Notes: generated by a model from the sequence alone, not told the origin. Shown: positions 3,601 through 57,805, counted from the stretch's first letter. The stretch: DNA of 64,000 bases from a virus (IMGVR_UViG_3300012956_000012:41975-105974), one strand, 5' to 3'. Translations and numbers: made by a program.

Positions 3601-5670
3601 CTCCATGTGATCGAAAAGTCCTGTAGATCCTACCATGGTTTCAATCTCTGATGCCAATTTTCTAGCATTGCTTAAAGCACTTTGACCAGTGTGTAAACTC
3701 GTTATTAAAGCGTCTTCAACTTCAATAGTATTACCAATAGGCATTTTTAGATTTCTTCCTACATTTAAAGCCTCTACAGTTGCCTTAGCTTTTTGGTAGT
3801 TTTCTAAATTTCTAGAGAACTGTTCTTTTAGATTTGATTTATATGCGTTAACATTATCCCCTAATAAATCCAGAGCTGCAGCATCAAGCTGCATGTGATC
3901 TATAATAGCATTATAATCTTCCTTAATTTGTCCACTTGTTTTTAGATGAGATTGGCTTTTGATGAACTCGACATCCATCATCGAATCATTAATAGAAGTG
4001 TCAGATCCATTTTCAATACCTTGTTCTATCTGATTTCTAAACGCTCTGACAGAAGAGGCTCTATTCATGTTTCGAAGTGTATTAACTCCTCTGTTGACTT
4101 CCTCCACTTTAGATTGCAAAGAAGCTTGGGCTGCTTTTCTAGAGTTTTTACCAATAAACCCTAAACCTCTCTCCTGAACGGATCCAACTCCCCAACCAAT
4201 TAACATACCAATACCCATTTCCTTCCAGCCCTCTTTGGTTCCATATTGTTCGGACAACGCTTGAGTAAAGCTTGAAAAGAGTGATAGTGAGGAGTCATTG
4301 TTTGGATCGTATTTTGCATTAAGGTAATTCTGCATAGTCTTTCCTGCTACACCTTGCATACCTTCTTCATAGATACCCTCTACTGAAGCCTTGCCTAAAG
4401 TCTTGTAAATGTTTCCAGTAAATCTTTGAGCTCTTGATGCTTCTTTTACAGCCAATGTTCCTATCTCGTCTCCTGACTCTAATCCTAGCCCAATTACTTT
4501 ATTCAACCTGTTTGTGGTAGACTTTGTAATGTTTTGCATTGAACTTGCAAAAGGATTTTTAACATTAAAAGCCTTTCCAAACATAGCTGCATTGGATACA
4601 GAGAGGATTGCCATATTAGCAGCAAACACTCCATTTGCAGCTCCAGTAGCTTCTTGTAAGAACTTAGAGTATTCCTCATCAGTTGGCTGCCTACCATTCT
4701 TTTCCTCGAACGATTCTAAATATGTTGATACAGCGTCTTTAAAGTTATGCCTAGCTTCCATTCCAGCTTCAAATCCGGATGTTCTTGCTAAGAATAATCC
4801 GGTGTCAACAGCAGAGCCTGCAGTAGTTAAATAACGAGCTTTATTCAGTGATTTTATTAAATCAACACTTCCTTCGAATTTTTCTAAATCTTTTGCTTTG
4901 TCTAAAATTTTACCTGTACTTACAACTGTCTTAGGTGCTCCAAAGAAAGTTTTACCTTTTGACATGTAATTAGTAGGGTCAAGAATCTCCTCTGCTCCTT
5001 CTTTTGCAGCTGTTTTTAAAAAAGACTTGGCACCAGCTTTAAAGCTTAATTTAGCTGCTGATCCTGCAAATGTTGCTCCACCAGTTAAAAATCCTAAACC
5101 TATCTCTGGAAGTAATGCACCTCCAACGAAAGCTAGAGCTCCTGCAGCGTCATTGGCCCAAAAGTTAGCTGTACCTAAAGATGATAAAAACCCTTTAGAC
5201 TTCTGTTCATCTGAATAGTAGTTTGGAAGCTTGTAGTCTAATTGTTTATTCCAATCATCTAACTTATTTGAGAAGTCATTGTTCCAGTAACCCTCCCATG
5301 ATCCTTCTTTAATTGCATTGATTGCACCATATACAGTTCCTACTGTTGCATCAAGTACGTAGTTTCCAGTTTTTCTAGCGTTTTTTAACAGACCATTAGT
5401 CCACTGATCTAAAGCTGATTGTTGCTTAGCTAATCGATCTTCATTGCCTACAGCTCCTAAGTAGTTTTCGAATTTTGCAACATAAGTTCCATCAGATAGC
5501 CTATCGTATATAGCACTAGTTGGTACATCATACTCAACCGGTTTCAACTCATTTTTCGTAGTTGAAAACTTAATTGGGCCTTTAAAAGAATCTAAAGGAT
5601 TTGCGTTAGGGTTTTTCACTTCCTGTCCAGATACTCTGGCAAGAATTGAATCAAAACTTTCTAATGACAT
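679..5670 (-). CDS. Giant virion cargo/ejection protein (1663 aa)
   Basis: Has Gly/Ala-rich hydrophobic segments (e.g. AAGALAFVGGALLPEIGLGFLTGG), an EGIYEEGMQ motif and long coiled coils. It lies in the crAss-like giant-gene block. Confidence 0.7.
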   Translation of the reverse strand: MSLESFDSILARVSGQEVKNPNANPLDSFKGPIKFSTTKNELKPVEYDVPTSAIYDRLSDGTYVAKFENYLGAVGNEDRLAKQQSALDQWTNGLLKNARKTGNYVLDATVGTVYGAINAIKEGSWEGYWNNDFSNKLDDWNKQLDYKLPNYYSDEQKSKGFLSSLGTANFWANDAAGALAFVGGALLPEIGLGFLTGGATFAGSAAKLSFKAGAKSFLKTAAKEGAEEILDPTNYMSKGKTFFGAPKTVVSTGKILDKAKDLEKFEGSVDLIKSLNKARYLTTAGSAVDTGLFLARTSGFEAGMEARHNFKDAVSTYLESFEEKNGRQPTDEEYSKFLQEATGAANGVFAANMAILSVSNAAMFGKAFNVKNPFASSMQNITKSTTNRLNKVIGLGLESGDEIGTLAVKEASRAQRFTGNIYKTLGKASVEGIYEEGMQGVAGKTMQNYLNAKYDPNNDSSLSLFSSFTQALSEQYGTKEGWKEMGIGMLIGWGVGSVQERGLGFIGKNSRKAAQASLQSKVEEVNRGVNTLRNMNRASSVRAFRNQIEQGIENGSDTSINDSMMDVEFIKSQSHLKTSGQIKEDYNAIIDHMQLDAAALDLLGDNVNAYKSNLKEQFSRNLENYQKAKATVEALNVGRNLKMPIGNTIEVEDALITSLHTGQSALSNARKLASEIETMVGSTGLFDHMEFVNSLKASQKTLLSDLKNKEKRLNDLRERAVSYGMQASQVQVEGKRNLKPETARRRQQMTAEKLVLVQQQITQLEKEKEQIEQTLGADYKTSTVNPTESIFQTTPDVMGAISEIDKLEDYVAALRRNGRSFDADSIEDMVERFKKYSDFHRETSNLVRDIASTDFFSTKKGKGLLNMIIGTPYEMTSELRKAIKENNKFMDIALKVPGIRGQEAIDLEIESKLKNSDQLSEREKHKIDTLLRMLLNVEQLNKEVKEATETVIELNSQVEQSNDPLEGDTVRLKESLNIKAEDLDNVEAIDKAIASILNQVEYLRGDVATSRKVTSINEKIKELKAKKNAIEEKQKQEQEGREPGDSVQPQGIVERQQEEGEGKGIERETTQQKADDSNSDQSSQEIDDRIAELEKELTTAVENLKIIDSPEYVRLNELLIKDEEEGLSEAEQAEKDTLEDEIDQWLFVTGTVAEGLRLSDLLRQKAMLESIDVEEVQVVANQTSQEIIEGVDFGDKVGRVHYDKAQIYDSVTVARNKKGLIEISGISPEDFIDELGMDIPFEVQEETNNILLNDKEDPTLLTRINNATNLSILPTNKNLTTNYSFIEKHTETTSEPLKSPFAQDFAEHMDVNAAYNTQEKEKLSLEVDPNDPYNKRILAETPQDLVIERLQKEGVIRLRNKEGAFCGVLKQKRKAGGRTKEDEKFTTLRDQVFGDPSTLDDMLSGKVIDTGLEVTVTKIFLGHPNYNMVKTEDNSVAIESRSFTDQDVKKVKDIGFVENGGYKTRSGVKGLDTTFLQKYIDRADKSRVAFVVIQVGKKRVAYPVKVNETEKTDHQEFKDIFKSNATETDKVIALNRYMASKGIDIKKPGDSFVIIGGSNLNTEFFNKKLAQLNSISYFYNLDSWLDGKVNIKDILKEQATIDINLSRPFHSPKIQFNLKDLEVEVSGAKSEPLTKPQMDEMMAKYQEARDAELKAEEERNKNC

Positions 5671-51690: not shown

Positions 51691-52930
51691 TGATAAATTA
51701 ACATACGATCAAGTTATTTCTAGGCTTCTAGAAGACAATATCTATTATAAAAATAAAGAATTTACAATAATATCTAAATTTAAGGGTGGACGTTACCCAC
51801 TTATAGTGAAGGATAAGTATGGGTATCATAGAATGAGTGTCTACTCTCTACTTAAGGGTTCAAAACCATCCTCTAGATCAAGCTTATTCCCTTTAAATTA
51901 TTTATCTAATAGATTGTGCGAACTGTACACACACTTTTATAAGAGAGAGGTAGTGTTGATAGGTCCTTATAAAAAGGGCATAGACTCTATCCTAGTAAAA
52001 GATTCGTTTGGCATGTGTAATTGCACTGTATCAAATCTTTTGAAAGGTAGAAAACCCACAATATTATCAGCAGTAGATAAGACTGAATATTTTATAAATA
52101 AGTCTAAAAAATTATACGGAGATAGATTTACATACGAAAAAACACAGTATAAGGACAACGGTGATGGTGAGGTAATTATAACTTGCAAAAAACATGGAGA
52201 CTTTAAAACAACTCCAAATATACACATGCAGAGTCCTAAATGTAGTAAATGTCACATGAAAAATTTATCTGAGGAAGAAAGATTACGATTGTTCAAGACT
52301 AGTAGGTTATCAACTGGTGATTTCATAAATAGAGCAGTAAAAGTACACGGAGATAAATATGATTACAGCTTAGTTAAATACACTATTTCTCACAATAATG
52401 TAGATATTTTATGTCACGAGCATGGGGTGTTTAAACAAAAAGCAAACAATCATTTAAATGGATCTGGTTGCCCAGCGTGCAGCAACCAATACACTGTAGG
52501 AAGCTTAAAATGGTGGTGCCACTTATGTAATGGCAAGCAGGGTATCTTATACATACTAAAATGTTATAATAATGATGAGGTATTTATTAAAATAGGTATA
52601 ACATGTAATAGTATAAAATATAGATATAGGAAGAAAACGCAAATGCCTTATAATTATGAGGTAGTTAGTACTATATCAAGTAATAATTTAAAACTGTTGT
52701 ATCTTACAGAAGCGGCCTGCAAGAAAAAACTAAAACCTTATAGATACGCACCTAAAAATAGTTTTGGAGGTAGCCAAACAGAGGCTTTTATTTTAAATAA
52801 TGAAGGATACCACACAAAAGAAAATGAAAATGAAAATAAATTCAAAGACATTGAGCATTTGGTCCACGCCGTATGGAATGGGCTTCAACTTTTAGAAGCA
52901 ATTGAGAATGAGAGAAAAGAGATTGGATAA
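51683..52930 (+). CDS. Putative homing endonuclease (DUF723-like Zn repeats plus a GIY-YIG-like domain) with a fused DUF5664-like C-terminal tail
   Basis: CKKHGDF...CSKC, HGDKYDYS...CHEHGVF...GCPAC, and GILYILKC...IKIGIT...FGGSQTEAF, followed by EHLVHAVWNGLQLLE. Confidence 0.7.
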   Translation: MGSDKLTYDQVISRLLEDNIYYKNKEFTIISKFKGGRYPLIVKDKYGYHRMSVYSLLKGSKPSSRSSLFPLNYLSNRLCELYTHFYKREVVLIGPYKKGIDSILVKDSFGMCNCTVSNLLKGRKPTILSAVDKTEYFINKSKKLYGDRFTYEKTQYKDNGDGEVIITCKKHGDFKTTPNIHMQSPKCSKCHMKNLSEEERLRLFKTSRLSTGDFINRAVKVHGDKYDYSLVKYTISHNNVDILCHEHGVFKQKANNHLNGSGCPACSNQYTVGSLKWWCHLCNGKQGILYILKCYNNDEVFIKIGITCNSIKYRYRKKTQMPYNYEVVSTISSNNLKLLYLTEAACKKKLKPYRYAPKNSFGGSQTEAFILNNEGYHTKENENENKFKDIEHLVHAVWNGLQLLEAIENERKEIG

Positions 52931-54860
52931 ATCAGCAGGAGGTACAAGTAAAATTATAACTCCATTGGCACCACATCAAAAAGTAGTATCAAACTTTTTA
53001 AGATCAAATGATATATCAATTCTAATTGGGCAAGCTGGTACCGGTAAGGATTTTGTACAACTTCACCGGGCAGTGGACGGACTTTTAAAGAAAGAGTTCG
53101 AAAAGATTGTCATTACAAAACCTGCGGTAGAAGTAGGAAAATCAATCGGTTTCCTTCCTGGACCTCAACCTTTAGACAGTAAGGTACTGACGCCAAATGG
53201 TTGGGCGACTATAGAAAATATAGAAGTTGAAGATAGTGTTATAGGTAAGGATGGTAAAGCATATAAAGTTACTAACAAAAGCTCTGTAAACAAAGAGCCA
53301 GTCTACCTAGTAAAAACAACAGATGGTAGGGAAATGGAGTGTTCCACATTACACTTGATGCATACACTAGATGCTAATGATAAAAAACATAGGCTAGATA
53401 AAAAGAAATATAAAAAAGATTATAGTGGTAGTGTTAAGACATTAAAAGAAATTATTAGCACATTATATACAAAAAATGGTAGACCCAACCATTACATAAA
53501 TTACTGTAGTCCTATCGAATTTGAAAGCGTAGAAAAATTTATACACCCATATTTACTAGGGGCAATACTGGGAGATGGGTTTATATCAGATAGTGTAGGT
53601 GTTTCCAATACTGATGAAGAACTTATAACTAAGTGTAAAAATATTTGTAAGGATATGGGTCTTATTATGAACGGAGGTGCTAATGATTCTATAACTTACT
53701 ACATTTCTAGTAGTAAGGAGAACAATAAGCCTGCAAAAGAAGTTATTATTACGAATATTTCTACTAAAGATGAAAGGAGATACAAGACTATCGGTGAGGC
53801 TTTAAAATATGAAGAGATAAAAAGAGGTACACTAAATAGTAGGTGTAAATCTGAATCCATAGTTGGTGAGCTACAGTACTCCTTTGGTGAAAAAGAGGGT
53901 GTATATACGAACCCAATAAAAGAGGAACTTAGAAAATTAGGGTTAGATGGTAAAGGCGCAAAAGAGAAGTTTATACCTGATAAATATATATATTGCTCCA
54001 GTATAGAAGAGAGGGTAGAACTCCTAAGAGGATTGATGGATACGGATGGTACATGTGATAAACGTGCTGCAGCATATACCACTATATCAAAACAACTTGC
54101 AGAAGGAGTTGTTGAGTTAATTAGGTCACTTGGAGGCAGAGCAACCATTTATAAGAGAAACCGTGTGGGAAGAAGATCGCACGTAACTAAAACTGGTCAC
54201 GAGGTTATTTCACGTCACCCAAGTTATGAAGTTGTTGTAAATTTAGATTTCAACCCATTTTATATCAGTAGAAAAGCTAAAAATTACAACCCTGCGTACA
54301 GACATCTTATAGGAATAAAGTCTGTAGAAATTGTAAGAGAGGATTATGTTCAGTGTATAAAAACATCTGCACCAGATGGGCTGTACATAACGAATAACTA
54401 CATTGTGACACATAATAGTACAGATGAAAAACTATTTCCATACGAAAGGTCATTTTTTGAAAATCTAGAGAAACTTGTAGGTAAACAAACTGCTACTAGT
54501 ATAAAATCTAAGATTAGTTTCGAGCATGTAGGATTTATACGTGGGAATACATTCCCAGAACACAGCGCTGTCATAATCAGCGAGCTGCAAAATTTTACGT
54601 TGCACGAATTAATCACCTATGTCACTCGTCTACCAGAGTCTTCCAAACTATTTATGAACGGGGATCCGGACCAAATTGATATTAAAGGCTCAGGTATTTT
54701 TGATTTTCTAAAAATTATGGAAGGGCTGGAAGGCGTTGGAGTTATGGAACTTGATCCGGAAGTACACCAAATGAGACGAAAATTGATAGTGGATATTATG
54801 AGACGCTATAAAAATTTTAAGGATGACAAAACAAAGGTACGATCAAATAAGGAACACTAA
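52902..54860 (+). CDS. phoH: PhoH-family ATPase containing an intein
   Basis: GQAGTGKD, ITKPAVE, GFLPG, FIRGNTF, SELQN and NGDPDQID motifs. Confidence 0.93.
   Translation: MRMREKRLDKSAGGTSKIITPLAPHQKVVSNFLRSNDISILIGQAGTGKDFVQLHRAVDGLLKKEFEKIVITKPAVEVGKSIGFLPGPQPLDSKVLTPNGWATIENIEVEDSVIGKDGKAYKVTNKSSVNKEPVYLVKTTDGREMECSTLHLMHTLDANDKKHRLDKKKYKKDYSGSVKTLKEIISTLYTKNGRPNHYINYCSPIEFESVEKFIHPYLLGAILGDGFISDSVGVSNTDEELITKCKNICKDMGLIMNGGANDSITYYISSSKENNKPAKEVIITNISTKDERRYKTIGEALKYEEIKRGTLNSRCKSESIVGELQYSFGEKEGVYTNPIKEELRKLGLDGKGAKEKFIPDKYIYCSSIEERVELLRGLMDTDGTCDKRAAAYTTISKQLAEGVVELIRSLGGRATIYKRNRVGRRSHVTKTGHEVISRHPSYEVVVNLDFNPFYISRKAKNYNPAYRHLIGIKSVEIVREDYVQCIKTSAPDGLYITNNYIVTHNSTDEKLFPYERSFFENLEKLVGKQTATSIKSKISFEHVGFIRGNTFPEHSAVIISELQNFTLHELITYVTRLPESSKLFMNGDPDQIDIKGSGIFDFLKIMEGLEGVGVMELDPEVHQMRRKLIVDIMRRYKNFKDDKTKVRSNKEH
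53163..54416 (+). mobile_element. 418-aa intein with LAGLIDADG endonuclease, class 3-like (Pro1)
   Basis: Boundaries GFLPG|PQPLDSKVLTPNGW...VQCIKT...YIVTHN|S. LAGLIDADG motifs YLLGAILGDG and LLRGLMDTDG. Confidence 0.9.
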
Positions 54861-55033: not shown

Positions 55034-55064
55034 TTGCACAGATAAATAAAGCACTTTATCTTTG
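55034..55064 (+). promoter_or_regulatory. Bacteroidota sigma-A-type promoter (TTG...TATCTTTG)
   Basis: TTG at 55034 and TAnnTTTG at 55057-55064, upstream of ssb and the RNA cluster. Confidence 0.75.
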
Positions 55065-55084
55065 CATCATAAACGAAGGACAAG

Positions 55085-55825
55085 ATGAATTATTTTAATT
55101 TTAAGATCTCCTCAAAGCAAGGAGAATTTTACCAAAGCAGCAGCACACCTCAAGAAGGTTATCAAGCTGTAGAGTATGGAACGCCAGTAAAGACTACGTA
55201 CCATAAATACTATAAAAGTTTAGCAGGTACTGTTAATTCTTTTGGTGTTAAAGAAGTACAATACGAAGGAAAGACTTTGAAGTTTTTACAGTTATCATTG
55301 AAAGATGGTGAGAATTTGTATCAGATTTCAGTTACCTTAAACAACCAAAAAGGTACTAACTATTCTGATGAAGCAAAAGCCTTGATTGGAGCTATGCGTG
55401 GATACAAAGCTGGAGAGCCGGTAAGAGCGTCAGTAAGTTATAAAACTACTACGTCGGCTAATGGTAAAGAGTACAAAAACTGTAATTTCTATTTGAATTA
55501 CGAAAACATTAAAAACGATGCTGGCAAAAATGCTTCGACCGGTTATATTCCTTTCGATGAAATTCCACGAGCTGAGGTTGAGGAAGTGGCAGGAGAAAAA
55601 TCTTACACATTCAAAGCACAGAAAAATTTCTACTACGGAATTTTAATGGAGTTATCTGAGAAGTTTAAGTTCGAATCTGCTCCAGCTATGAGTCCTGCTC
55701 CAAGCTCAACAGCTGAACCTTCTCCAACAGGTAATGCTCAACAGCCAGTAGTAGCTTACCAACAGGAGGCACCTCCAGCAGCGGCGGCAATACCTACTGG
55801 CCAAAAAGATGACTTACCATTTTAA
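55085..55825 (+). CDS. ssb: Single-stranded DNA-binding protein
   Basis: P/A/Q-rich linker and acidic C-terminal DDLPF tip; highly expressed codon style. Confidence 0.75.
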   Translation: MNYFNFKISSKQGEFYQSSSTPQEGYQAVEYGTPVKTTYHKYYKSLAGTVNSFGVKEVQYEGKTLKFLQLSLKDGENLYQISVTLNNQKGTNYSDEAKALIGAMRGYKAGEPVRASVSYKTTTSANGKEYKNCNFYLNYENIKNDAGKNASTGYIPFDEIPRAEVEEVAGEKSYTFKAQKNFYYGILMELSEKFKFESAPAMSPAPSSTAEPSPTGNAQQPVVAYQQEAPPAAAAIPTGQKDDLPF

Positions 55826-55834
55826 ATAATGGTA

Positions 55835-55927
55835 GTGGATGTATCTCAGTCCGGTAGAGTACTGCTCCCTATTATGTAGGGGATAAATAATGGCAGGAGG
55901 TCATTGGTTCGAATCCAATCATCCACA
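55835..55927 (+). ncRNA. tRNA-like RNA with a 25-nt expanded anticodon loop
   Basis: Acceptor GTGGATG/CATCCAC, D arm with GG, anticodon stem CTGCT/GGCAG, and T arm ATTGG-TTCGAAT-CCAAT. Confidence 0.8.
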
Positions 55928-55929
55928 CT

Positions 55930-56172
55930 ATGGAAAATCAATTAGAAAGAGAGATCTCTTATGGAGAGAAAGCAGTGGGGATTACATTTAATCCAGGTAA
56001 CAGTGATGAGGTATACAAGGTAAAAGCTTTGTGTGCCGAATTAATTAACCAAATGAATGACTTGCGTTTAGCAACCCGTAATTCTGAGCAAACACGCTTA
56101 GGATCTATCGCAATTACAGAATTGCAAACAGCTCAAATGTGGTGTGTAAAAGCCATTACTTGGCAAGATTAA
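55930..56172 (+). CDS. Acb2/Tad1-like helical-hairpin protein (candidate nucleotide-signal sponge)
   Basis: GEKAVGITFNP...VKALCAELI...RLGSIAITELQTAQMWCVKAIT pattern. Confidence 0.6.
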   Translation: MENQLEREISYGEKAVGITFNPGNSDEVYKVKALCAELINQMNDLRLATRNSEQTRLGSIAITELQTAQMWCVKAITWQD

Positions 56173-56176
56173 AATT

Positions 56177-56353
56177 TTGATCGTGGCGGAATTAGACGCT
56201 ATTACATATTAGATAAGACACACCGAAACAAGGCGGACGGCGACACCTGGTGAGTTAACACCTACCAGTCTTTTTGGACTGCAAATCCAAAAAACTCTAA
56301 TATGTAACTTGGAGAGCTCAGGCTTACTACAGGTTCAAGTCCTGTCGATCAAA
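56177..56353 (+). ncRNA. tRNA-scaffold RNA with a large insert in place of the anticodon arm, containing an internal Cys(GCA) anticodon hairpin
   Basis: Acceptor TTGATCG/CGATCAA, D arm GCG-GAATTAGA-CGC, 12-bp helix 56202-56213/56296-56307, and T arm ACAGG-TTCAAGT-CCTGT. Confidence 0.75.
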
Positions 56354-56360
56354 ATTAAAA

Positions 56361-56529
56361 AGATACGTGGCCGAATTTAAGGCATGTTAGTTACACTATT
56401 GATGATCTGCATTTATGCAAACCTTCAACGAGGTCGGGAGGATCACTTTCTCAGGTCAGAAGATCCGTAACCTTGGGAACCCGTAATAGTAGTTTCTAGA
56501 GCTTGCAGGTGAAAGTCCTGTCGTATTTT
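56361..56529 (+). ncRNA. tRNA-scaffold RNA with a large structured insert
   Basis: Acceptor AGATACG/CGTATTT, D arm GCC-GAATTTAA-GGC, helix ACTATTG/TAATAGT, and T arm GCAGG-TGAAAGT-CCTGT. Confidence 0.7.
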
Positions 56530-56539
56530 TAACTAAAAT

Positions 56540-56613
56540 GCCCCCGTAGTTCAGCTGTATAGAACAACATTTTTCTAAAGTGAAGGTCCCAGGTTAGAGT
56601 CCTGGCGGGGGTA
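56540..56613 (+). tRNA. tRNA-Arg (UCU)
   Basis: Cloverleaf with acceptor GCCCCCG/CGGGGGT and anticodon loop TT-TCT-AA. Confidence 0.85.
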
Positions 56614-56630
56614 CTACCATACATAAAGTA

Positions 56631-56727
56631 AAGGCTTTACATGGAGTAGGTAACGTGTAAAGATCAGTGGAGGAATAACTCTGAAATCCAAAGGCTGCTG
56701 ACCGACCTGTATAGGAAATAGCCTTGG
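56631..56727 (+). ncRNA. Candidate ~95-nt structured RNA between two tRNAs
   Basis: Helices CTTTACATG/CGTGTAAAG, TCAGT/GCTGA, TGGA/TCCA, CCT/AGG and AAGGCT/AGCCTT. Confidence 0.45.
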
Positions 56728-56732
56728 TAAAC

Positions 56733-56814
56733 GCTCGGATGGTGGAATTGGTAGACACACTGGATTTAGGATCCAGCGCTAAAAAGCATGAGAGTTCGAG
56801 TCTCTCTTCGAGCA
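56733..56814 (+). tRNA. tRNA-Leu (UAG)
   Basis: Type II cloverleaf with CTGGA-TTTAGGA-TCCAG anticodon arm and GAGAG-TTCGAGT-CTCTC T arm. Confidence 0.93.
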
Positions 56815-56872
56815 CTAACATAAAATATGCGCAATATCATAGTTAAAGATATTATGCAAAATATATGATAAT

Positions 56873-57097
56873 ATGAAAAATTACGTAGTTGGAATACTTT
56901 CAATGTTTGAAAATAACTTAAAGCTGTTTAAAGTCTCAGCTGATAATGAGTATGAGGCTGTCAAAAAAGGAATGCTCATATTTAGCAATAACGATAGTAA
57001 TGAATTAGAATGGCAGAATTCAGACGACTATCCAAAAGACATGGAAGGATTAATTACAGCGTATGAAGAACTTCCGTTCGATGTTATGGAAATTTAA
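56873..57097 (+). CDS. Hypothetical acidic protein inside the RNA cluster
   Basis: 74-aa ORF with an AT-rich upstream region. Confidence 0.6.
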   Translation: MKNYVVGILSMFENNLKLFKVSADNEYEAVKKGMLIFSNNDSNELEWQNSDDYPKDMEGLITAYEELPFDVMEI

Positions 57098-57102
57098 AAC
57101 AC

Positions 57103-57477
57103 TAGCATGAGGTAGCCGACCCTCACACATTTTAAACAAAAAAGGATTCACAGTTGGAGAACTGTGCGGACGGGCTAAACATTTATCCCTTGTACTCATC
57201 ACTGACATTAGTGTCATAAGTGTTACATAAAGATATCAGACGTAATTCTGAACACACCGGTACCTTGAGAAAGTACCACTGAACAAAGGCCAAGAATGAA
57301 ACCAAGCCCGAAAGGGACGGAATACACAGTACGGACGGTGTGAATGAGATCTCAGCAAGTGAATAGGGACCAGATACGCAACTGGCACGGGATTTCTCTC
57401 AGGTAGAGATATTCACATGACCCTACTCTAAGAGGCCTACACTTTTAATGTAGAGAGCCTGTAGAAAGAGGGTGCTA
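57103..57477 (+). ncRNA. Candidate large (~375 nt) structured non-coding RNA
   Basis: No ORF in the track. Closing helices TAGCA/TGCTA and CCCTC/GAGGG, with about ten internal helices. Confidence 0.65.
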
Positions 57478-57523
57478 ACATGTTGATTTAGGTAAGCCTT
57501 GGCAGTGGGTGTAACTGTCAATT

Positions 57524-57597
57524 GGTCTCATAGCTCAGTTGGTCAGAGCGTCAGACTCATAATCTGAGGGTCGCAGGTTCAAGTCCTGCTGGGATCA
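57524..57597 (+). tRNA. tRNA with CAT anticodon (Ile2-like; elongator Met not excluded)
   Basis: TCAGA-CTCATAA-TCTGA anticodon arm with canonical D and T arms. Confidence 0.9.
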
Positions 57598-57603
57598 CTA
57601 AAT

Positions 57604-57751
57604 AGCTGTGTAGCAGTTGAGGTCGCGCCAAAAACTGTGAGTGGGATAGTAGGAAGCTTAAATGCACCATGCTGATGTTATGACGTCTTTATTCGGTGAT
57701 GGCATTGCAAGATAGACTGCTACGTCGTATGTTCGATTCATACCACAGCCA
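57604..57751 (+). ncRNA. tRNA-like RNA (acceptor stem plus T arm) with a ~110-nt insert
   Basis: GCTGTG/CACAGC acceptor, GTATG-TTCGATT-CATAC T arm, TAGCAGT/ACTGCTA helix and an internal hairpin at 57661-57706. Confidence 0.7.
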
Positions 57752-57767
57752 CTTGCTAAAAAATGTT

Positions 57768-57798
57768 AAAGTGCGGCGAAAGTTGCACTTTTTCTTTT
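57768..57798 (+). terminator. Intrinsic terminator closing the ssb-RNA operon
   Basis: AAAGTGCGGC-GAAA-GTTGCACTTT followed by TTCTTTT. Confidence 0.75.
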
Positions 57799-57805
57799 AT
57801 ATTTG
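57798..57805 (+). promoter_or_regulatory. Bacteroidota-type -7 element (TATATTTG)
   Basis: Matches TAnnTTTG just after the terminator and upstream of ATG 57823. Confidence 0.55.

Follow-up and report, generated by a model that had tools for sequence, protein, structure and literature searches.

In bacteriophage T4, rnaC (species 1) and rnaD (species 2) are small stable RNAs of 119-139 nucleotides (nt) that lie head-to-tail with tRNAs on the same strand; to our knowledge, their function is still unexplained after decades. ROOL and GOLLD are phage and prophage RNAs, often found near tRNA islands, that form homo-oligomers through kissing loops (PMC12286853). YrlA, which also occurs in phages, is non-decoding and joins a tRNA-like domain (T arm, D arm and acceptor-like stem) to a conserved helix; its gene adjoins that for Ro60/TROVE, and the 5' and 3' ends of the RNA form the Ro-binding stem (PMC4201824). 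Here we describe an operon of tRNA-like RNAs at positions 55034-57801 of the window, the 64,000-nt stretch analysed, which forms the 3' part of an IMG/VR virus record of 105,974 bp (36% G+C).

The operon combines three decoding tRNAs and at least five non-decoding structured RNAs with an SSB-like gene and a gene for an Acb2/Tad1-hairpin protein, all on the plus strand. Four of the RNAs, here called tl1 to tl4, have tRNA-like bodies, each with an acceptor stem and T arm and most with a D arm. We consider it likely that an uncultured phage of ~106 kb carries the locus as a transcribed accessory operon, with exchangeable, tRNA-framed RNA modules that act in trans.

tRNA frames and their modules

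ARAGORN and Rfam agree on a tRNA-Arg (TCT; 56540-56614, 57 bits), a tRNA-Leu (TAG; 56733-56815, 56 bits) and a tRNA with anticodon CAT (Met or Ile2; 57524-57598, 72.5 bits), which serve the codons AGA, CUA and AUG/AUA. The intron mode of ARAGORN also calls tl1 (18-nt insert) and tl2 (56176-56354; 85-nt insert) at its default threshold, and tl3 (56360-56530) and tl4 (57634-57750) at relaxed thresholds. We searched the operon with Rfam 15 at gathering thresholds (29 bits for tRNA) and at E<=10; no family other than tRNA was listed, and among the unusual RNAs only tl1 matched the tRNA model, tl2, tl3 and tl4 being unlisted. None of the four has a free anticodon in a 7-nt loop on a 5-bp stem: the anticodon-arm position holds a 25-nt loop with a paired CUA in tl1, and 59-91 nt of other structure in tl2-tl4.

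Relatives with the same layout were reached through SSB homologues. A close relative (L086; SSB 97% identical) holds all of the RNAs, with an extra open reading frame (ORF) after tl3, and L088/L089, L091/L092 and L093 (SSB 54-60%) keep tl1, tl2, tl3, tl4 and a 95-nt element in part. Some 80 more distant loci, reached through SSB, exonuclease and Acb2 relatives, lack these RNAs.

tl2 (56175-56354) has a tRNA-Leu-like body with a 9-bp acceptor, D arm, variable arm and canonical T arm, and it folds far better than shuffled sequences (z = -4.2). An 11-bp stalk (56202-56212 and 56297-56307) bears a cassette of ~82 nt, in which an 8-bp hairpin (56271-56293) displays the loop CUGCAAA. The same loop is the anticodon loop of a real tRNA-Cys in another phage (L061), and we read the hairpin as a putative tRNA-Cys anticodon-hairpin look-alike. 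In L093 the tl2 frame is kept, with compensatory changes in the acceptor, stalk and T stem, around an unrelated insert; in an RNA-library contig from a close relative of the phage, 56201-56329, the part from D arm to T arm, is swapped for 109 other letters. A tl2-like RNA in L088 (2296-2428) has an additional hairpin of ~20 nt inside the D loop, which suggests that the D loop may be a second insertion site of this frame.

tl1 (55835-55927) is a class I tRNA body whose 25-nt anticodon loop holds an 18-nt insert (55872-55889); it scores 45 bits against the Rfam tRNA model, 27 nt occupying a place for which the model provides 9. ARAGORN reports the same call, (cta)i(37,18), in the window, L086, L091 and L092. 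The window and L091 copies share the anticodon stem CUGCU/GGCAG and 15 of the 18 insert positions, and in each the anticodon side of the loop forms a helix with the insert (CCCU:AGGG in the window, CUCUG:CAGAG in L091), kept by a compensatory change from C33:G to U33:A. Their acceptor and T stems are wholly different. Because insert and anticodon stem are shared while acceptor and T stems differ, the module appears to be the conserved unit of tl1, set by sequence comparison on two different tRNA bodies. At the tl1 position L088 has a normal tRNA-Phe on the L091-type body. Removal of the 18-nt insert in silico leaves a 7-nt CUA loop in the window and in L091, where it is the canonical CU-CUA-AA; the RNA contigs retain the insert and show no joint across it. 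Pattern scans for a wider family of tl1 modules found none, all eight matches being the ribosome-binding site and ATG of ordinary genes. The tl1 insert and 3' half themselves resemble a ribosome-binding site and ATG opening a 33-codon frame (55890-55991); L091 has AAG for this ATG, so the frame is not conserved.

tl4 (57604-57752) has an acceptor (57605-57610 and 57744-57749), an enlarged D-like hairpin, a long middle and a canonical T arm (57727-57743). Homologues in L088/L089 and L091/L092 differ in both bases of seven pairs, and the L088 and L091 copies keep the acceptor, the enlarged D-like hairpin and an invariant T loop, UUCGAUU. A pattern scan of IMG/VR found no other members, and we regard the tl4 middle as a lineage-specific module. 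Palindromes of 6 nt occur in or near predicted loops of tl2 (GUUAAC, 56254-56259; GAGCUC, 56314-56319) and tl4 (AAGCUU, 57654-57659), and the L093 tl2 insert contains GGGCCC.

A first-pass annotation of this DNA had proposed three normal tRNAs and four RNAs on tRNA bodies, and had argued against pseudogene decay. Each of these proposals stands. Two programs agree on the tRNAs; ARAGORN calls all four tRNA-like RNAs, and homologues of each carry compensatory stem changes; beyond the tRNA model, no element matches an Rfam family. Covariation in homologues, named beforehand as a check, was obtained for tl2, tl3 and tl4. Since the stems are kept by compensatory changes, here at SSB identities of 54-60%, and are covered in RNA libraries, the tRNA-like RNAs are not decaying pseudogenes. 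The idea that the tRNA body serves as a scaffold is borne out in that the middle modules swap between relatives, whereas covariation is seen in the acceptor, D and T stems. Because the stems covary, the tl2 cassette is swapped, the tl1 module occurs on two bodies and the tl3 core on two frames (below), these comparisons support a view of the tRNA bodies as frames for exchangeable non-decoding modules, transcribed together with real tRNAs.

The tl3 core family

Within its tRNA-like frame, tl3 (56359-56530) bears an invariant core of ~30 nt, consisting of CGAGGUCGGGAG (56429-56440), a variable hairpin (P5) and CGUAACCUUGGNAACCCG (56466-56483). Pattern scans found ~44 loci with this core, 35 of them distinct, carried by IMG/VR contigs of 30-65% G+C, by a Rhizobium prophage, where the core adjoins the terminase, and by a Planctomycetota metagenome-assembled genome. 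Another 17 matches, in coding DNA and without a downstream AACCC, were excluded as chance. Nearly every true member is enclosed by a closing stem of 7-14 bp, unrelated in sequence from member to member. The core lies inside same-strand tRNA arrays in 23 of the 44 members (0 of the 17 chance matches), usually only a few bases away from the tRNAs on either side, and often fills a "tRNA slot" of the array.

An alignment of 16 sequences with a hand-drawn structure was used to assess covariation. Paired cells make up 94.3% of the total, against 77.8% in shuffles and ~40% when the structure is slid; 21 pairs show changes in both partners, and covariation scores 0.506 compared with 0.178, none of 500 shuffles reaching 0.506. 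The closing stem, P2 and P5 are kept by covariation. A covariance model built from this alignment (R1) has a single match in the window (56387-56486; 37.7 bits, E 1.4e-4 in a 294-kb search), and there is one copy per carrier locus.

Two kinds of frame bear the core: a short plain-stem frame, and a cloverleaf-like frame with a 7-8-bp acceptor, two-base linker, D arm and 5-bp T stem abutting the acceptor. The cloverleaf-like frame is found in eight class-a members (the window, L086, L093, L088, L095, L107, L110 and L138), and every one of its stems covaries.

The hairpin 3' of the core has a 6-nt palindromic loop in all 16 aligned members, in the same columns and with six different palindromes. 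Family-wide the palindromic loop is present in 30 of 34 members, with nine different palindromes on a stem that covaries. In the window it is UCUAGA, in the loop of the variable-arm hairpin (56495-56500), and the L093 equivalent is UUUAAA. Because the palindrome is kept as a property and its sequence is not, we suspect loop-loop pairing between two tl3 copies; the pattern suggests that tl3-type RNAs dimerise through kissing loops.

As drawn, the core is a predicted three-way junction with an internal loop (CGGGA/GUA), which may be a K-turn or a loop E, and perhaps a CGGG:CCCG pseudoknot. The strand order would fit a double pseudoknot like that of hepatitis delta virus; we rejected this candidate, as the conserved P1.1 loop and an Rfam match are both lacking. 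Mimicry of rRNA (L1 stalk, 16S h45 or sarcin-ricin loop) was also dropped, the motif having no counterpart in one Rhizobium 23S.

Five family loci searched against Rfam 15 at E<=1 matched only tRNA, a BLAST search of 50,697 GenBank phage records with a family member returned nothing related even at E<=10, and a literature search by sequence string and keyword found no description. Judged by sequence, the tl3 core is part of a phage RNA family that is widespread and as yet uncatalogued. That the core is invariant in phages whose hosts are distant speaks for a universally conserved binding partner.

A tRNA-rich phage array in L094 (100-900) has ORF-free blocks flanked by tRNAs (~305-430 and 513-715) that are neither tRNA nor tl3 core; these may be further uncatalogued RNAs.

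Transcription, genes and the remaining RNAs

The operon opens a plus-strand block of replication-type genes, with PhoH upstream and a repair exonuclease downstream. The PhoH-like ATPase gene (52902-54860) is split by an intein in which Pfam recognises LAGLIDADG and Hint domains. The phage was found in sludge and bioreactor samples, the entire stretch being present in one activated-sludge run, probably its source, and its host is probably a member of the Bacteroidota. Its genome is 92% coding under code 11, and the coding analysis gave no sign of TAG or other stop-codon recoding; we therefore rejected recoding as the reason for a CUA tRNA.

Both ends of the operon are as first proposed. The promoter (55034-55064), read from the sequence, is of the Bacteroidota -33/-7 type, with TTG at 55034-55036 and TATCTTTG at 55057-55064, which we take to be a match to the Bacteroidota -7 motif TAnnTTTG; a scan for the sigma-70 consensus does not list it. 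An RNA-library contig of a close relative starts at 55067, ~3 nt past this promoter. The intrinsic terminator (57768-57801) has a 10-bp stem and a T tract, its hairpin (57768-57791) being the top-scoring result of a terminator scan. A second TAnnTTTG-type motif, TATATTTG (57798-57805), directly follows, with a new RNA contig from 57794, and probably serves as promoter for the operon that follows.

The region was compared with assembled contigs from four libraries, three of RNA and one of DNA. In a bioreactor sample, the RNA library contains a 1,392-nt contig of a ~96% identical relative, covering 55067-56478, that runs through ssb, tl1, the Acb2-like gene and tl2 (with the 109-letter replacement) to 56478 in tl3; its depth is 172, whereas the contig from the DNA library of that sample has 4.2. 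Further contigs cover a large RNA, at 57117-57437 (depth 563) and, in a sister sample, at 57116-57434 (depth 67). An Illumina adapter directly abutting 57117 in the deeper contig points to a discrete RNA end there, the only one visible in the contigs. The contig-free parts (56555-57022 and 57608-57724) are uninformative, since contigs and filters leave holes. The RNA contigs fit one transcription unit and an abundant RNA of ~321 nt.

This large RNA (57117-57437) lies within an ORF-free part of the operon (57098-57523), where a structured RNA of ~375 nt had been predicted. The contigs support an RNA of ~321 nt, but its fold is no better than that of shuffles (z not significant); it has no Rfam match at E<=10, and no homologue was found beyond L086. 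The L086 copy differs mainly in the first ~140 nt, and an RNA-library variant has an 11-nt insertion after 57206, which together mark the 5' part as the variable one. The "95-nt RNA" of the first-pass annotation is better described as a conserved spacer element (56615-56732): its sequence blocks are common to L088 and L091 and one 3' hairpin covaries, but the consensus structure as a whole is weak (seven pairs; fold z = -1.85). A pattern scan found no other members in IMG/VR.

The first gene of the operon (55085-55825) encodes 246 amino acids and had been annotated as ssb. It has no family match in Pfam or PHROG scans and no PDB sequence match. Its AlphaFold2 model (predicted local distance difference test, pLDDT, 80 overall) has a beta-rich core (~93) and 47 disordered residues (200-246), a Pro/Ala/Gln-rich tail ending in DDLPF, of which the LPF tip is invariant among 30 homologues. 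Nearly all top Foldseek matches are SSB or OB proteins, with weak scores (E 1e-3 to 5e-2). The protein thus has the fold, linker and acidic tip (D-D-[LI]-P-F) of bacterial SSBs but lacks the Pfam family match, and on the strength of the model we accept it as SSB-like.

The second gene (55930-56172) starts 2 nt past tl1 and encodes 80 amino acids. As had been proposed, it is of the Acb2/Tad1 type: residues 21-77 match PF24729 (Acb2_Tad1_hairpin) at 43.1 bits, above the curated cut-off of 27 (E 4.8e-11). The family is well conserved, with 23 loci, and the AlphaFold2 model is a helical hairpin (pLDDT 93). Similarity to solved structures is weak, both by profile (T4 Vs.4, 7uq2, E 0.11) and by Foldseek (CbTad1 and Vs.4, E ~4-5). 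We call it an Acb2/Tad1-hairpin-domain protein with putative ligand binding. In L061, the Acb2-like gene (3950-4219) contains one in-frame stop; 1.2 kb upstream of the gene lies a tRNA whose anticodon, TCA, reads UGA (2719-2793), and a tRNA-Cys immediately precedes it, a combination that may reflect TGA recoding.

The other of the two small ORFs first noted (56873-57097; 74 amino acids) has no family match in Pfam or PHROG scans and is not conserved even at 96-98% identity, two unrelated ORFs taking its place in L086. It appears to be a variable accessory cassette.

Possible functions and known parallels

Given their tRNA-like features and their positions in arrays, we infer that these RNAs would be excised from the polycistronic transcript like the neighbouring tRNAs, by host RNase P, RNase Z or 3' exonucleases, and that the closed acceptor-like stem would shield their ends. 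A tl3-type RNA would then pair with a second copy through its palindromic loop, and the tl1 insert would mask the CUA anticodon. Once released, the RNAs would bind a host component that is highly conserved and so act in trans, the likeliest targets being the tRNA and translation machinery or enzymes that act on tRNA, with either counter-defence or translational take-over as the outcome.

Several observations weigh against this reading. Both strands of the CGGG:CCCG pseudoknot are invariant, so that it shows no covariation, and none of 34 loci held a diverged core that varies there. By fold energy, tl3, tl4 and the large RNA do not surpass shuffled sequences, and tl1, tl4 and the 95-nt element each have only two or three independent homologues. 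Clustering the neighbours of the 44 tl3-core loci revealed no protein family shared across lineages, and Pfam placed 20 such neighbours in a mixture of replication, nin and packaging genes. Both RNA samples covering the operon come from one study and consist of contigs; they fit the single-unit co-transcription proposed at first, but a gene-spanning contig is no proof of a single transcript, nor of mature ends, processing or relative abundance.

A more specific proposal, which we find rather unlikely, is that the operon is an RNA-based anti-defence system of tRNA-framed decoys or sponges beside an Acb2-like sponge protein. In it, the tRNA-Cys hairpin of tl2 would sequester an anticodon nuclease, and a conserved immune protein or signal would be the ligand of the tl3 core. 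Phage tRNAs counter tRNA-cleaving defences (PARIS/T5, PrrC/T4); an Acb2_Tad1_hairpin gene sits between tl1 and tl2, and the tl2 loop is identical to a tRNA-Cys anticodon loop. An arms-race pattern is apparent as well, in that the tl2 cassette and small ORFs turn over between phages that are 96-98% identical, and Acb2 is only 84% identical between the window and L086, where the flanks are 96-100%. The assignment of function nevertheless rests on context, by analogy. Invariance of the tl3 core across hosts of several phyla and 30-65% G+C fits a housekeeping target better than a patchy defence, and the sampled neighbourhoods outside this phage group (replication, nin and packaging genes) hold no recognisable anti-defence gene. 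Among 23 Acb2-like loci of other phages, two have tRNAs nearby and none has tRNA-like RNAs. In its fullest form, offered as speculation and with little confidence, the proposal makes the operon a counter-defence or take-over toolkit, deployed early with the Acb2-like sponge, in which the tRNA bodies would be a display and processing platform, tl2 a decoy for a tRNA-Cys nuclease, and the dimerising tl3 core a high-affinity inhibitor or sponge of a universal bacterial factor or signal.

Palindromic loops kept as a property and not as a sequence would also suit self-assembling, RNA-only particles, in which the tl3 family and possibly tl2 and tl4 form homo- or hetero-oligomers with an architectural or sequestering role, a small-scale counterpart of ROOL and GOLLD, whose kissing-loop oligomers likewise belong to RNAs near tRNA islands (PMC12286853). 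We think this unlikely. One self-complementary loop gives a dimer and not a cage, the RNAs are 125-180 nt long compared with 500-800 nt for ROOL/GOLLD and have no Rfam similarity to them, and the candidate palindromes of tl2 and tl4 may have arisen by chance.

Very unlikely, in our view, is a purely cis-acting role, with the tRNA-like elements as RNase P/Z cut sites and stabilising ends and the excised RNAs as by-products. tl1 fills the gap between ssb and acb2, its 3' end 2 nt from the ATG, and so would separate the two messages and leave acb2 almost leaderless; moreover, every element lies on the same strand as the tRNAs and in the one operon with them. Such a cut site, however, needs no 30-nt invariant core, palindromic loops or anticodon-hairpin mimic. 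The L091 homologue of tl1 precedes an RNA and not an ORF, and half of the tl3 family occurs with no tRNA next to it.

That tl1 is an amber suppressor (CUA) with a removable short intron, and tl2-tl4 are tRNAs damaged by insertion, seems highly improbable: the 7-nt CUA loop left in the window and L091 (canonical in the latter) and the normal tRNA-Phe at the same position on the same body speak for it, but the window tl1 would have C33, the RNA contigs keep the insert unjoined, the code-11 genome shows no TAG recoding, no Intron_gpI match was found, the known introns of bacterial tRNAs are group I introns of at least ~200 nt, we know of no bacterial mechanism that splices an 18-nt tRNA intron, and the tl2-tl4 frames covary around, in tl3, an invariant core.

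We thus favour tRNA-framed modules that act in trans. What is new here is the tested architecture of a tRNA frame with exchangeable modules, together with a widespread core of ~30 nt, a predicted dimer and evidence of expression. The T4-era puzzle of stable non-tRNA RNAs in phage tRNA clusters becomes experimentally approachable; and should the partner prove to be a factor of defence or translation, these RNAs would form a new class of phage RNA effectors and offer natural, ready-made scaffolds for RNA engineering as well.

Among known RNAs, tRNA itself (RF00005) is like tl1-tl4 in several features: its acceptor, D and T stems, a linker of two bases between acceptor and D arm (U8-like in the window lineage), and a T stem directly adjoining the acceptor. 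A group I intron in a tRNA does not account for the inserts, which measure 18-91 nt against a core of at least ~200 nt and have no RF00028 match. Transfer-messenger RNA was rejected, with none found by ARAGORN at its default or by Rfam RF00023 and only artefact-level calls at an 80% threshold, as were Drum-type motifs, with no match. For the protein partner, Acb2 (T4 Vs.4) and Tad1 share PF24729 and the predicted helical hairpin with the 80-residue ORF, the matches to solved structures being weak.

YrlA resembles the RNAs here in its tRNA-like domain but differs in topology, since here the 5' and 3' ends close the acceptor stem. We rejected identity with YrlA or other Y RNAs, as neither the operon nor the five family loci match an Rfam Y RNA, the topology is opposite, and no TROVE gene (PF05731) was found in five carrier phage records, two of them at least 96% complete. 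ROOL and GOLLD form cages of 8-14 chains from RNAs of 500-800 nt or more, in contrast to RNAs of 93-321 nt here and a single self-complementary loop in tl3; membership was rejected on the lack of an Rfam match (operon, E<=10; five family loci, E<=1) and on lengths that fall short of the >500 nt of those families. T4 rnaC ends in a canonical T arm and an acceptor-like end, a likeness to the present RNAs. T4, however, has no invariant core of the tl3 type, and no palindromic-loop or module-swap pattern has been described for rnaC or rnaD; on the T4 tRNA cluster R1 does not exceed 8 bits, and we rejected homology. Stable non-tRNA RNAs in phage tRNA clusters are, as T4 shows, an old kind of thing, of which the RNAs here are an instance not homologous to those of T4, to ROOL/GOLLD or to YrlA; by analogy, T4 rnaC/rnaD and ROOL/GOLLD appear to be their closest parallels.

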